Assembly: GCA_039621445.1 (NCBI GenBank)
Contig: CP154954.1
Coordinates: forward strand, 1,364,001-1,428,000
Length of the DNA stretch: 64,000 nucleotides
From: Euglena gracilis
Lineage: Eukaryota
Direction: 5' to 3'
Of this stretch, positions 26,213 to 31,835 are shown piece by piece. Below the pieces are notes generated by a model, which was not told the DNA's origin, made no database searches, and saw nothing but the letters and a program-made list of their open reading frames with translations. The translations under genes were made by a program, and so were the position numbers. Position 1 is the stretch's first letter, and every line of letters starts with the position of its first letter.

Positions 26213-29200
26213 TGATGGGAGTTGCTGGTGTTTTAGGTGCTGCTTTGTTATGTGCTATTCATGGTGCAACGGTAGGTGCTACTTGTTAATCTAATAATAA
26301 TATTATATATGTGTTGTTTTTTAGATTTTGGTGAAATTTAGTTAAAAATTCTTATTTATGTTTATGAAAATACTGTTAAATGTTTGAATAATTTATAGAT
26401 GTATATAATTTGGTTTGTAATTTTCCAAATTAGTTATTAGTCTAAGAAGCGATTTTCAATTTTCTACTAAATATGAAGTTTGTCAAATAGATATGCTAAA
26501 TATAGTTCTAGTCGCCATTTTGTACTTGAAGTGTATTTTACTTTTTTGCAATTATTTTAACTAACTAAATTCTTACCTTTTAAGTATGTTAATAATTTTT
26601 TGGTGTATATCTATATGTTGTTAGATTATATATATAAATAAGGAAATCAAGTTTTTAATCAAAAGGATGGTTTAAAAAATTAAATAGTGTTGTTAGTATA
26701 AATTTTATGTATATTTACTTAAGTCACAGTTGTATAGTATCGAAAGTTTTCGCTTTTGTTTTAATTAAAAATTTTAGCTGAGTAGCTGTATGATTATAAT
26801 TTTTCATGTACAGTTTCAAAAAAAGTTTTTTATTTTTTAATAAAAATCAATTTTCTCAAAATACTATTTTCGAAGATGGGGATAGTCCAAATACATTTAG
26901 AGCATTTAATCCACTTCAATCTGAAGAAACTTATTCTATGGTGACAGCTAATCGTTTTTGGTCTCAAATTTTTGGTGTAGCTTTTTCAAATAAGCGCTGG
27001 TTGCATTTTTTTATGGGTACGGCTAATAGTATTCAGTTACAATACCACGGTTATTCTATAGAGTAGAGTGGTCTCTTTGGTACAAGATGCGTATTTTTAA
27101 TGCCGAAAAACAAATGTGTTTATTAGGAAAGTAGTTTAGAATAAAAATTACAGTTGTGTAGTTATACGTTTTGCTACTTTAATAAATATGTGTTAAAAAC
27201 CGTGAATGCTAGAAACCAATCTTTTATTTATTACTTTTTTATTTTTAAGAAATTTGACTTGGTTAATCTAATCATGTTTGATTTTTCTTTGCAAAATAAG
27301 CTTTGCATATTGGGTTAGTTATTGTACCTTGTAGTTATGTCGGTAAATTAGCGTATTTTTAATTTGTAGTTTTTATGTGTAATTGAAAAGATCTTAGTAA
27401 AAATCAATAATTTTTTTTGGTTGAACGACAATGTGAAAAAGCAAATGTTTTGAAATAATAGTTCAAAAATGACATGGAAAAGTTAAATACTTGATCATGC
27501 AATTATGCTAACGTTACATTAGCTCAAAACATTTTTTATGTTGAATTCGGCAATTCAATTTTGTTTTTTAAAAGTTTATGTGAATTTTGATAAAAGAAGT
27601 TTTTAACTTTTCAATGTTATATTATATAATTTTATAGATTAATTTGATATTTAGTATAAATTTTACTTATATTTTTTGTTTTTTAGTTTATAATAAGCGT
27701 TATGAACGTTAACTCATTTTTAAATTTTGAACGACCGTTTTACTATTAATGCTTACTGTTTTCCTTATGTTAATAGATATAATATTCAATCTGTAAAAAA
27801 TATTTTAATAGCTGATTATTTGAGTACAGAAATAATGTTTTTAAAAGATATACATCAATTTTTTCTTGGTTTTGTTATTACAAATACTATTATTGTTATT
27901 ATAGGTCAAATAAACCTTCAGTTTAAAAATTCTTATAATATTGTAAGTGGTTTAAAAGTGCAGCAACTTGATTCTATTAAGTATTATTGTAAAGTATTAA
28001 CGCACGATAGTAGTTGTTTGTTTTTTAGAAATTGTTTAGCTGTAATTGATAGTATTATTGTTAATATTGACGAATATCTTTCATTATCTCCTTTTAAAAG
28101 ACGAGAAAAGTTTTTACAAGATGTGGAATCTTTGAATAACCCTTCTGTGCCTGCTCGTTTATTTATAAATCCGAAAAAAGATTTTATTTTGATACATCGT
28201 AAGGGAGTATCTTTGAAGATTCGAAGTACTTTTCAAATGTATTCAATTTATAAGTTTAATGTTTCAGTTAGTAAGAATGCAGCTATATTTAATACTTTAA
28301 GACCGAGTGATTTCATTTCTTTTTTAGAATATTATAGTGATATGAACATTAATGAAATACTTATTAATGTTCTGAATAACTATGGATTAAATGATATTTC
28401 CTTGTTTTTGGTAAAAAAGATTTTTTATTTATTTGATTCAGATAAGATTTTTTTTAATGAGTTTATAGGTGTTGATAGCGTTCCTTTAGAATATTTTTTA
28501 CTTTTTTTATCAAAAAAGTACATTATTAGAGCAAGGAAAGAATCGCCTTTAAAAATATATACTGACTTTGAAGATTTTTACATACACGGTTCATTTAAAA
28601 ATATTTTAAAAATGCAACAGCAAAAAATTAAACAAAACCTTGGTTTTAAAACAAAATCTAATTTTTTTACAGGAATATAGTTGTGGCAAATTTGAAAAAA
28701 TTTTTGTGTAAATTTCGCACTAAGAAAATACGTAGAAGAGATAATTTTATGTTAATAAAAGTAAATTTTATGGAGCATTATCTTTTAAATAAACAATTTG
28801 AGTTAGCCTCTGCTATTAAATCAAGAAACAAAATTTTAATCCATAAATTAGTATCTGATGTCTTAGTTTCTTATAATTCATTATGTTATGCTGTATACAA
28901 AACGTTGAAGAATTCGGATGATAAATCTTCATCGAATATTCAAAAAAAAAAAAAAAAAAAGAAAAATTTTCAAAATTTAGTTGATTCTTTAAAATGTTTT
29001 GTATTGAATTATGATTTTTATAAAATCAGATGTTTAAATTTATATTATCTTCGCAATTTTATCGATTGCAAAGAACAATTCTTACACTTTCATTTTTTGG
29101 ATATAGCTTTGCAAAATCTATATAGTTTTATATTTTTTCCTTTTCTTGAATCAAATTTGGATAAATTTACGTATGGACCGAGAGTTTTTCGGTCTTCTAT

Positions 29201-31835
29201 TGATGCGGTAAAAGTATTGTTTTTGTTGGGTAAACAAAAAAAGTATAGTAATTATAATAAATATCTCTTTTGTTTTGCTTTTAACTATACGATTGTAAAA
29301 TGCTTTGATGCAGTTTTTAATAGTTGGGTGTTATCTAATGTTTCATTTATTGATAAGTCGATTCTTTCTTTTTGGGTTAAAAATGGATTTGATAATTTTT
29401 ACAGCGGTGATCAATTTTTTTTTCAAAAAAAAATTTTGAAATAAATTGGGGGACATCTTTAATTTTTTTGGTTATTTTTAATTTTGTTTTTATGGGTATG
29501 CAATTTTTTTTAGAATCTTCGATACTTTCTAAATTTGGATTTTTTTCTAAGTTTGTCTTAATTACTGATTTAAATAGTGTTGTTATATTATCTTCTGATT
29601 TAAAAACGGCAAAAATTGTTAAAAGTAGTTTGTTAATTTTTTTTCATTCGCGTGGTATTTGCCAAAATTTCCGTGATAATTCTATTGTCGACTTTTTTTG
29701 TAAAAATTGTGAGAATAAAAATTTTGTTTTTTGCGGGATTACTTTTCACTATAAATTGATTCATGGAGAATATAAATTTGTTTTATCTCCAATTTTGGAA
29801 AAAATTAAGAATGTAAAAAAAAAAGTTTTAAACCTTTGTAAAAAATTTTCTAAACCTTTAGTTCTTTTCGACAATATCAAACCTTTGATGAAGTCTTGGT
29901 TTAATTCTTATAAAATTATTAAAAACAATTATTCTTTTTTAAAATTGTCTTATTGGATAGTAGGAAAAATAACAAAATCAATTTATCTTTTATATGTTAA
30001 TTCGAATTTTGAAAGGGGAAAATTTGGTATTCGTAAAGGTAGACGGTCTGGAAGACTTTATAAAAATATAGCTGCTCAGGTTGTTAAAAGGTTATATTTT
30101 TTAAAAGATCAACAACGTTTTTTTATAAATACCATTGAAGGGAAAATTATATTTAAAGGTTTTAGCGTTGGTTTATCAAAAAAAAATAGTATAGAACTGA
30201 AAAATTTTTTTTCAAATTCTTTAAAAGGTAAAAAATTTTTTGCCACTTTTGGTAAAAATTTTTTTAATTGTTTTGACTATTACGATTTGAGGACACTTAT
30301 CTTTCAAGATAAATCATTTGCTAGAGAGTATTTTTTTCGAAAATGTAAAGGATTTTGCCCTCTTTGTAAAAGAGATTTTTTACTTTGCAATTTTAAATTT
30401 TATTATGTAGTTCCAATTAATTTGAATTATTTAAAAAAAATTTTTAATGTTATACCTTTGTGTTTTTGTTGTTACAAAATGGTTTTTATGATTATGAAAA
30501 TTAATAATGTGAGAAGTTTAGAAAAATTTATTCGATTATCTTTGTTGAAGTTAAATTGAAATTTCATATCTTGGATTCGTAGAATTAGAATAGAAGGAGA
30601 GGAGCCGTATGAATTAAAATGTTCATGTACGGTTTTGGAGGGACTTATTGTTTTTTTAAGTCACCCTCACGTTATTTGTTCCTGTAACAGGATTGTGGAT
30701 GAGTGCTTTGGGTATTGTTGGATTAGCTCTTAATTTACGTGCTTATGATTTCGTTTCTCAAGAAATCCGTGCTGCAGAAGATCCAGAAGTGTGTATATTT
30801 AGTTTTTACTTTATTTTTTCGATTTAATAATAGGCAAAATCTAAAAATAATTTTTGTTTAGGATAAGTTATTAAGCATTTTATTTATTTTTTTTTTTTTA
30901 TTATTTTTTTTAATATTATGGTAGGTTATATGTATTTTTAATAAGTTTATATAATAGTAAAAAAAGAATTGTAAGTTTTATTTAATTTTTCGTAAATAAA
31001 AGGTTGTTCACGTTTTATTTGTTTAATACTTTTTAATGGTTTTTTATATGCTTTTTATGTGTGAAAATTTTTTTGCATATTAGTACCTTAATGAAAAGTA
31101 GTATGTATTTGAAATGCAAGTACTATTTGGTAAGAGGTATTTTTATTAAATACCGACTTCTACTTTGAAACTTTTTATACTAAAAATATTCTTTTAAATG
31201 AAGGTATTAGAGCTTGGATGGCTGCACAAGATCAGCCTCATGAACAATTTATATTCCCGGAGGAGGTTCTTCCACGTGGAAACGCTCTTGTTTGTTTTTG
31301 TATCTTTTTAATAGTCGAAAATACTACAAAAAATTTTTATTTATTAGGTTTTTTCCTATTGAAATTTATACTAATTTTTTTGTAAAAGCAGTTGTAAGAT
31401 CTGTGAAAAGGAGATTATGAAGTTTTATAAAATACTTTAAACTATTATTATTATTGTAGTGTATTTTTCTTTTATTTTTTAGTTTGTTAAAACTTGCTAA
31501 TTTAAAAAAGAGCTTCCTTTTTTGCTGTAATATTATTTTTTATTCTGAAAATTTAATAATGAATTATTTTTGTCTATGCTATTAAAAATTATGAATAATC
31601 TAATAATTGGATTTTTAAAACGCTATTTTTGTTAATATGTGACAAAAAAATGTCAAAACTGGTTTTTATTTGTTAGTTTTGTTTTTGTTTTAAAAAATTA
31701 ATTGTTTGAAAGAATTATGGTTTCAAAAGGCCTCAAAAATTTAAAATCGATAAAATATAGCTTAATAAGCAAAAAAGCTTCTGTAAAGTTAGGAGGAAAT
31801 TTGATTATTTTTTTCTAATCTTTTAATCCTATTAA
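26213..31835 (+). CDS. psbD: Photosystem II D2 protein, 3' half only (exons 26213-26275, 26858-27014, 30671-30788, 31164-31289, stop 31833-31835)
   Basis: [80 protein letters not shown]. The 5' exons are absent from the window. Confidence 0.96.
26276..26857 (+). other. Group II intron in psbD
   Basis: 5' GTGCT; domain V AGCTGTATGATT..TCATGTACAGTTT at ~26784-26816. Confidence 0.85.
27835..28680 (+). CDS. Intron-encoded 281 aa ORF (317 aa from TTG 27727); putative degenerate LAGLIDADG protein
   Basis: Long open frame in AT-rich intron DNA. The family assignment is a by-eye motif alignment (see findings). Confidence 0.7.
   Translation: MFLKDIHQFFLGFVITNTIIVIIGQINLQFKNSYNIVSGLKVQQLDSIKYYCKVLTHDSSCLFFRNCLAVIDSIIVNIDEYLSLSPFKRREKFLQDVESLNNPSVPARLFINPKKDFILIHRKGVSLKIRSTFQMYSIYKFNVSVSKNAAIFNTLRPSDFISFLEYYSDMNINEILINVLNNYGLNDISLFLVKKIFYLFDSDKIFFNEFIGVDSVPLEYFLLFLSKKYIIRARKESPLKIYTDFEDFYIHGSFKNILKMQQQKIKQNLGFKTKSNFFTGI
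28683..30559 (+). CDS. Degenerate RT/maturase with domain X and a C-terminal HNH-like zinc domain; frame broken near 29420-29470
   Basis: RT2 [33 protein letters not shown]3 [23 protein letters not shown]4-like [12 protein letters not shown]7 [10 protein letters not shown]-like [12 protein letters not shown], and CPLC..CFCC. Confidence 0.82.
30789..31163 (+). other. Group II intron in psbD
   Basis: 5' GTGTG; domain V-like hairpin at ~31098-31128; 3' CGACTTCTAC; in-frame join PE|FET. Confidence 0.85.

Follow-up and report, generated by a model that had tools for sequence, protein, structure and literature searches.

A psbD group II intron of Euglena gracilis with a candidate accessory gene upstream of a degenerate maturase gene

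Introduction

The textbook group II intron encodes a single multifunctional protein, and we know of no classical description of them that includes a further protein gene of the kind reported here, upstream of the gene for the intron protein. The present work concerns a single intron of psbD (D2), located at 27015-30670 on the plus strand of a 64,000-nucleotide stretch of Euglena gracilis DNA (assembly GCA_039621445.1, contig CP154954.1, positions 1,364,001 to 1,428,000; the whole stretch is called the window below). In this intron an open reading frame (ORF) of 317 codons, ORF1, lies directly upstream of a gene related to the reverse transcriptases (RT) of group II introns.

The downstream gene is best compared with the classical RT-X-D-En intron protein (PDB 6me0). 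Our RT-family profile A5 matches the group II maturase RT 6me0_C at 5.5e-51; the gene lies in the domain IV region of an intron with canonical domains V and VI, and the order of RT, thumb/X, basic region, and Cys-rich HNH-type end is retained in the window. The window protein differs from the classical one in its replaced YADD and HNH histidines, in its lack of recognition by Pfam, and in the conserved extra gene, ORF1, directly upstream of it.

The maturases mat1/ycf13, mat2, mat5, mat6, and mat7 of euglenids are similar in being intron-encoded, often without detectable domains, and in having intact ORFs. Most euglenid mat2 and mat5 proteins are reported in a preprint to be without detectable domains (10.1101/2021.09.24.461685), and the degenerate RT of the window agrees with that account of many euglenid maturases. 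The same preprint and a second source describe mat6 and mat7 in psbD introns of Eutreptiella eupharyngea (10.1101/2021.09.24.461685; PMC6207741). The available portions of these two sources mention no second, upstream protein gene for euglenid maturases, in which respect the present locus differs from them (10.1101/2021.09.24.461685; PMC6207741). For mat2, a further source gives orf116 and orf631 in Monomorphina, and internal introns that interrupt the gene in E. gracilis (PMC3534033). The likeness lies in a maturase that appears as several ORFs within one outer intron; according to that description, however, the mat2 pieces are joined by splicing of nested introns, whereas no internal joint is present here and the frame changes are of single bases.

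Group II introns encoding LAGLIDADG proteins exist as well, and these share with the present intron a gene for a non-RT protein; ORF1, in contrast, has no LAGLIDADG signature, and it accompanies an RT gene instead of replacing it. A more distant analogy is provided by ORF1/ORF2 of long interspersed elements (LINEs) and by retroviral gag-pol, where a non-enzymatic upstream ORF is close to, or overlaps in the −1 frame, an RT-endonuclease ORF and is fused to it in some relatives. The ORF1 described here has no sequence or fold similarity to such proteins, though, and a frameshift at this locus is only putative. The literature searched (supplements and most subscription journals were outside its scope) contained no account of a second gene of the ORF1 type within a group II intron. 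What appears to be new is a non-RT partner that is conserved with one group II RT lineage, split from the RT in some members and fused to it in another.

Results

Layout of the intron

The psbD intron is probably a bipartite intron-encoded-protein locus, in which a new accessory module, ORF1, is combined with a catalytically degenerate maturase. Contigs from four public runs were aligned to 26000-31500; X17 (RNA-type), X13, and X15 gave cover, X1 gave none. The features of the intron are as follows.

27015-30670 (or 27016-30671), plus strand: group II intron, 3656 nt, limits from an RNA-derived exon joint
27015-27723, plus strand: 5' ribozyme part, presumed domains I-III, ~710 nt, no long ORF, placed by position only
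27727-28680, plus strand: ORF1, 317 codons, start TTG 27727 (or ATT 27724), stop TAG 28678-28680, from the ORF, database protein P0005, and alignment
28662-28668, plus strand: T7 run at the overlap of the ORF1 and RT frames, a U_UUU_UUU heptamer in the ORF1 frame; the RT frame is open from 28662
28683-30559, plus strand: RT-X-(D)-HNH-derived maturase gene, ~625 codons with A10 (in the window 28683-29444 plus 29468-30559), from ORFs, run contigs, and homologues
28942-28960, plus strand: A19 homopolymer within the RT ORF, read as a run of lysines, crossed by DNA contigs X13 record 4 and X15 record 9 with 0 gaps
29425-29433, plus strand: A9 run at which the RT frame breaks in the window, one A short compared with three independent runs
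30600-30670, plus strand: domains V and VI, RF00029, 43.5 bits (gathering score 40)

Association of ORF1 with one RT lineage

The clearest link between the two genes is provided by P0010, an ORF of 902 aa from a eukaryote transcriptome. Its residues 4 to ~270 form an ORF1 domain (hhalign 98.5%, E 1.8e-15, 235 columns), followed by a basic linker and by intact RVT_N, RVT_1, and HNH of the same RT lineage. The order across the P0010 junction is that of the window: the ORF1 tail aligns with the P0010 linker, and in the comparison across the junction the N-terminus of the window's RT frame aligns with ...KTSKGRKIGKKRGVREDFKLGKIKHLEHKVL. A second link comes from P0006 (ORF1-like, 42% identical) and P0002 (RT-like, 44%), each taken from one Logan contig of 4258 nt; most simply, this would be the same contig, and hence the same two-ORF intron in a distant relative. 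ORF1 is found directly 5' of this RT lineage in the window and fused to it in P0010, and would be paired with it in the source of P0006 and P0002 also. From the fusion in P0010 and the apparently paired ORFs of the 42-44% identical relative, ORF1 and the RT look like one system. The ORF1-type proteins of the window, P0006, P0007, and P0012 stop at the same aligned basic tail; the ORF1 stop is therefore old and not a fresh lesion.

ORF1 and its protein family

A HMMER search of 1.84 billion proteins with ORF1 gave 10 matches at E<=1e-3, five of them, P0005 included, at E<=1e-30. P0005 is a same-species copy (317 aa, 99% identical, with 1 substitution in 317 aa relative to the window); P0006 (313 aa, 42% identical), P0007, P0008, and P0009 have E-values of 3e-69 to 1e-34, and P0010, P0011, P0012, and P0014 are weaker matches (family E-values from 3e-69 to 6e-4). 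P0013 (4537 aa, E 3e-4) was judged spurious and left out of all alignments.

Judged by these alignments, ORF1 belongs to a small, previously undescribed family of predicted helical proteins. Members have 280-317 aa and share the motifs Q-x-L-[DE]-S-x-K-Y-Y, FFRN-x-x-AVI, HRKG-x-x-L-x-IRS, and F-[ND]-E-x-IG[VI]. A hydrophobic helix of ~19 residues near residue 45-65 (residues 46-64 in ORF1) is present at the same aligned place in 9/9 members scored, the Kyte-Doolittle score of the 19-residue stretch ranging from 1.46 to 2.22 across the nine, and a basic tail is common to the members that reach the C-terminal end of the alignment. Conservation begins upstream of the first ATG of ORF1 (residue 37); the start is therefore placed at TTG 27727 or ATT 27724. 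The AlphaFold model of ORF1 obtained with 9 aligned sequences (pLDDT 76.4, pTM 0.77) comprises 17 helices and 2 short strands; as a single sequence ORF1 reached a pLDDT of 34.2, the nine-sequence alignment being needed for a usable model.

Comparison with known proteins gave no significant match. ORF1 profile A2 had 0 matches at E<=10 among PDB sequences; the best Foldseek hits of the ORF1 model had E 0.92 (PDB) and 0.23 (BFVD); the ESM Atlas returned no usable match; and the best Z in a VIA-wide fold search was 4.3, a fold missing from such lists not being thereby excluded. Ranked first by VIA, at this Z, was an N-terminal segment of the group II RT 6me0_C, on a par with helical proteins unrelated to it. 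No relationship of ORF1 to the RT itself was found with hhalign of profile A2 against RT profile A5 (probability 0.14%). Identification of ORF1 as a LAGLIDADG protein finds no support, and no endonuclease signature was detectable: no such match was found by Pfam in ORF1 (0 families, E<=1) or in 8 homologues (E<=0.1), whose scan otherwise gave four sub-threshold chance matches and the RT and HNH families of P0010.

The RT gene

The sequence of the downstream gene has the pattern of a maturase that would lack polymerase and nuclease activity and keep its RNA-binding parts. P0003 and P0004, which share 37% identity with the last 363 codons of the window gene over 96-99% of this segment, carry RVT_N, RVT_1 (1.8e-31 and 7.3e-25), GIIM, and HNH in Pfam. 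In alignment A4 the motif GVPQGG of relatives is replaced by EINWGT in the window-type protein; the polymerase motif [FY][MA]DD (FMDD in P0003, YADD in P0010) by DLNS in the window and in the database protein P0001; and the HNH motif IHHIKP...CH (P0003, P0010) by FYYVVP...CY in the same two, the Cys pairs being retained. The stretch SYW...LYLLY...IAAQVVKRL is near-invariant in that alignment, and the thumb and the basic region are well conserved. GIIM (X/thumb) gave no Pfam match in the window or P0001; the X/thumb region of the window can nevertheless be aligned, its order unchanged, with the parts of P0003 and P0004 that GIIM covers.

Limits and splicing of the intron

This is a single group II intron, spliced as one unit. 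In an X17 contig of 2087 nt (depth 65.5), the joint 27014->30671 skips 3656 nt, with GG..AC ends and 1-nt ambiguity, and the same contig carries the psbD joints 26275->26858 and 30788->31164; a second X17 contig, of 3636 nt, spans 27045-30677 without internal joints. The depth in X17 was 20.8 for the intron contig and 3.5 and 3.7 for pieces of two adjacent ORF-less introns, a weak hint, depth being unreliable for ranking.

The 5' end of the intron, GG(G)UACG, is outside the GUGYG consensus, and its 3' end is ...CUCAC; the neighbouring intron at 30789 begins with GUGUG. The 5' end (27015-27021) deviates although domains V and VI of this intron are the most canonical of the region. Domain V (~30601-30634) gave a near-perfect plant-type match (RF04357, 52.8 bits, gathering score 53, 30599-30639); domain VI (~30637-30668) shows its bulged A at 30663, at a distance of 7 nt from the 3' splice site, as read off the alignment and the sequence. 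No further domain V-like match was found with Rfam in 27015-30599 at E<=10; the Rfam D1-D4 models had no match in the intron, and the minimum free energy fold of 27015-27735 with 30552-30670 had no recognisable domain plan. The first ORF begins ~710 nt into the intron, and the last stop (30557-30559) is 41 nt away from domain V. By this position, between the 5' ribozyme part and domain V, both coding regions would sit where domain IV lies.

Reading frames and homopolymer runs

Three frames, all different, are present in the window: 27727-28680 (317 aa), 28683-29444 (253 aa), and 29468-30559 (363 aa). Without interruption they extend over 318, 260, and 382 codons, against at most 124 in 1000 shuffled versions of the intron, and each has 0 in-frame stops (317+253+363 codons, 24% GC) compared with 18-46 in the off-frames. 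All 3 runs with cover (X17, X13, X15) have an extra A behind 29424, and P0001, 98% identical to the window protein, reads through the site uninterrupted; the RT gene is therefore one ORF, 28683-30559, of ~625 codons, which matches the size of the intact homologues P0003 (632 aa) and P0004 (627 aa). The A9 run of the window is either an assembly slip or a strain variant. The X17 intron contig has three gaps, two of them without a listed place; these may lie in the repeat 28934-28978, which includes the A19 run, and could, if at A19, be slippage or sequencing stutter.

A first-pass annotation of this DNA, made from the sequence, is confirmed here in part of its description of the locus. The single group II intron that it had recognised is spliced as such, and the limits it gave, 27015-30670, match the RNA-derived joint within the 1-nt ambiguity. 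The GTG that it had seen 2 nt behind the TAG of ORF1 is indeed at 28683, the stop occupying 28678-28680 and TT intervening, and the RT-like frame that it had ended ~40 nt before domain V ends 41 nt before it, taking the Rfam start at 30600. Its placement of both ORFs in domain IV agrees with their position, and the frames that it had considered to be kept open are free of stops and far longer than expected from the shuffles. Its single RT ORF holds in the independent data, with A10, but not in the window itself, where A9 leaves two frames.

The ORF1/RT junction

ORF1 ends in ...AAU UUU UUU ACA GGA AUA UAG, followed by TT and the GTG at 28683. The RT frame is open from 28662; its first standard start is GTG 28683 and its first ATG is at 28749. 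That ATG is downstream of the basic N-terminus conserved in the RT, and translation would therefore enter at or before the GTG. At the T7 run no indel is listed in any of the 3 runs with cover, contigs hiding rare variants; no stable structure is predicted downstream of U7 (−13.8 kcal/mol, z = +0.24); and T runs of at least 7 occur 15 times in the 3656-nt intron.

The foremost candidate for expression of the RT, on which our judgement is evenly poised, is termination-reinitiation at TAG-TT-GTG. An independent start at ATG 28749 or 28770 is considered unlikely. Two further outcomes are given a somewhat lower probability still, and the same one for each: a −1 shift at U7, which would make an ORF1-RT fusion of the P0010 type, and a failure of one or both parts to be made at all. 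Frameshifting is held this low because of the lack of a downstream structure, the frequency of T7 runs, and the lack of an extra T in the contigs.

Discussion

In the reading that we consider probable, the ancestor of the downstream gene would be an intron protein of the classical RT-X-D-HNH type. YADD and the HNH histidines are lost from the gene product, and mobility would therefore probably be lost also; with its conserved thumb/X and basic region, the degenerate RT would bind RNA and serve the splicing of its own intron as a maturase. ORF1, ~300 aa, helical, with a hydrophobic helix and a basic tail, would be the cognate accessory module of that RT lineage, in most family members a separate ORF ending just before the basic N-terminus of the RT and in at least one relative fused to it. 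ORF1 and the maturase would be made from the same intron RNA and cooperate in one ribonucleoprotein (RNP), where ORF1 would either provide a tether by means of its hydrophobic helix or be a chaperone for RNA or a subunit for assembly. A splicing-RNP subunit, tether or chaperone, is our best guess for ORF1, suggested by its features and its association with the RT. The data would also accommodate a putative two-component domesticated splicing module that acts in trans.

If this reading is true, the one-protein model of group II introns gains a component, a second protein or N-terminal module conserved with a single RT lineage, and ORF1 is a concrete candidate to explain how euglenid maturases so heavily degenerate could still function. 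The layout would then also parallel ORF1/ORF2 and gag/pol in eukaryotic retroelements. The annotation is corrected in that the RT gene is one ORF (the window being one A short in a homopolymer), the intron is spliced singly, and no endonuclease features are seen in ORF1.

A number of observations weigh against the bipartite reading of the locus. No function of ORF1 is supported by similarity in Pfam, PDB sequences, the fold searches, the ESM Atlas, or BFVD, and narrow ORF1-family profiles matched nothing in JGI metagenome contigs, viral contigs, and prokaryote genomes. Co-location of P0006 and P0002 is read from their equal contig size of 4258 nt and from nothing else. The fused form was found once only, in P0010; a profile search among longer proteins, weak evidence in itself, returned none, P0010 included. 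At five distant RT loci (L001-L005, 23-52% identity over the best segment, RT profile A4) the ORF1 domain is absent. Pfam gave 0 families at E<=1 in all three window frames and 0 families at E<=0.01 in P0001 and P0002. Neither gene has an ATG at its conserved start (TTG and GTG, respectively), and both frame junctions are at homopolymer runs, as expected of a decaying single ORF.

Held more tentatively than the bipartite locus as such, and on balance doubtful, is an organellar group II intron lineage with a retrotransposon-like two-gene layout, in the manner of gag-pol or LINE ORF1/ORF2 but within introns presumed to be ancestral to those elements. ORF1, possibly membrane-anchored or RNA-chaperoning, would stand upstream of a cooperating RT that is expressed by coupled re-initiation or by a −1 frameshift at U7, and the pair would here have been domesticated as a two-subunit splicing factor after loss of RT and endonuclease activity.

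Decay of a single gene is an unlikely explanation of the locus. A ~940-aa ORF1-RT ancestor resembling P0010 would have been cut by a 1-nt loss in a T-run, its pieces would be functionless relics, and splicing would depend on other, perhaps nuclear, factors. The existence of the fused form, the break at a T7 run in an intron where T runs are so frequent, the loss of catalytic motifs with no Pfam domain detectable, and the non-ATG starts all fit such a history, as does the lack of detectable domains in most euglenid mat2 and mat5 proteins according to the preprint (10.1101/2021.09.24.461685). Relics, however, would not be expected to keep all three frames free of stops at this GC content, well beyond the off-frames and the longest shuffled ORF; a relative of 42-44% identity apparently keeps both ORFs, four family members share the aligned position of the ORF1 stop, conservation of thumb and basic region is strong, and a confident fold is predicted from family covariation.

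Slippery heptamers follow the rule X_XXY_YYZ, and AAU UUU UUU is a perfect one in the ORF1 frame, with the −1 frame open from exactly 28662. In a gag-pol-like arrangement, ORF1 would mostly be made alone, and an occasional −1 ribosomal shift or polymerase slippage at U7 (28662-28668) would give a ~940-aa fusion equivalent to P0010. Ahead of the GTG the RT frame encodes FYRN..., which can be aligned with NYQR and KYVR in P0003, P0004, and P0010, a fused homologue has the window order, and the conserved basic N-terminus of the RT begins upstream of the first ATG. This arrangement is nonetheless regarded as quite improbable: the aligned residues are few, the run is not followed by a stable structure, a T7 in the 19-nt overlap is expected by chance about 1 in 10 times, T7 runs being common, and neither RNA nor DNA contigs have an extra T, though rare variants would be hidden in them.

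The first-pass annotation had taken ORF1 for a LAGLIDADG-like gene and the intron for a composite of two independent homing systems, both with decayed active sites. Degenerate catalytic residues are indeed present in the RT and HNH parts; in ORF1 no endonuclease signature was detectable. Capture of a LAGLIDADG gene and an RT gene in one intron would have precedents in the LAGLIDADG-encoding group II introns, and ORF1 has no RT similarity by hhalign. It is very improbable all the same, given the lack of Pfam matches to LAGLIDADG in ORF1 and its homologues, an ORF1 model that is almost wholly helical and retrieves no nuclease in the fold searches, and an ORF1 domain that P0010 carries in fusion with an intact RT belonging to this lineage and that apparently diverges alongside the RT in a relative. 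Separate nested introns, which the annotation had named as an outcome that would speak against it, are highly improbable: twintrons are common in euglenid plastomes, and the orf116 and orf631 of Monomorphina mat2 are thought to be joined by internal splicing (PMC3534033), but one outer joint is found in the RNA-type run, the intron contig has no internal joint, 27015-30599 holds no second domain V, and single bases in homopolymers explain both frame changes.

Host gene and surroundings

The window is a euglenid-type plastome segment with rpoB/rpoC1-like ORFs, psbD, psbC, psbA, tufA, rps7, and psaA. The exons of the host gene psbD, the translations of which include ...MGVAGVLG... and ...NTFRAFNP..., are as follows.

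26213-26275, plus strand: psbD exon, joint 26275->26858 in an RNA-derived contig
26858-27014, plus strand: psbD exon 5' of the intron, translation ending in ...WLHFF(M), joined on both sides in X17 record 16
30671-30788, plus strand: psbD exon 3' of the intron, joined in an RNA-derived contig
31164-31289, plus strand: last psbD exon, translation ending in ...PRGNAL, joint 30788->31164

The 5' two-thirds of psbD are absent from 24108-26212 and from the whole 64 kb. Upstream of the exon at 26213, the spliced RNA contig X17 record 16 has 258 nt that end in codons for FHNWTLNPFH; no 11-mer of the last 30 nt of this stretch was found across the 64-kb window, except one at 35932 in an AT-rich tract. 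At 26149-26212 a domain V-like hairpin and then a domain VI-like stem with a bulged A can be seen by eye; Rfam gave no match there, and the fold z-score is −0.07. Only rRNA operons, on the opposite strand, lie upstream of the 26213 region. Either psbD is trans-spliced or the source assembly is rearranged. The rRNA operons are two in tandem on the minus strand, 13354-24107, with the order 5S-23S-tRNA-Ala-tRNA-Ile-16S and a repeat unit of ~5.9 kb; the GC skew flips sign near 26000, where the plus-strand part of psbD starts.

Behind 31289, where the last psbD exon ends, the spliced RNA runs on for ~11 nt (TAATAAAAAAT) before it reaches sequence located at 40457, and an intron of ~9.1 kb therefore lies between the end of psbD and the next psbC exon. 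This intron (31290-40456), in which a micro-exon is possible, includes at 34000-38500 a ~4-kb tract of only 7-9% GC that is packed with degenerate T-rich tandem repeats, and also a maturase-like ORF at 39572-40297.

Two maturase-like ORFs are present in psbC introns, one at 39572-40297 (Intron_maturas2 at 5.5e-08) and one at 41292-42320 (RVT_N at 3.1e-15, 24% identical to P0003). By sequence comparison they are assigned to a lineage distinct from the RT of the psbD intron, and the ORF1 domain was not found in either. A second canonical group II domain V/VI (RF00029, 44 bits) is located at 50226-50299, downstream of the psbA exon 48574-49170, with no ORF of at least 150 codons near it. The Rfam family IsrR matches 44948-45017 on the minus strand with 53.8 bits (gathering score 52); IsrR is antisense to isiA, a CP43 relative, and the match is therefore probably just a similarity to a psbC exon on the opposite strand.

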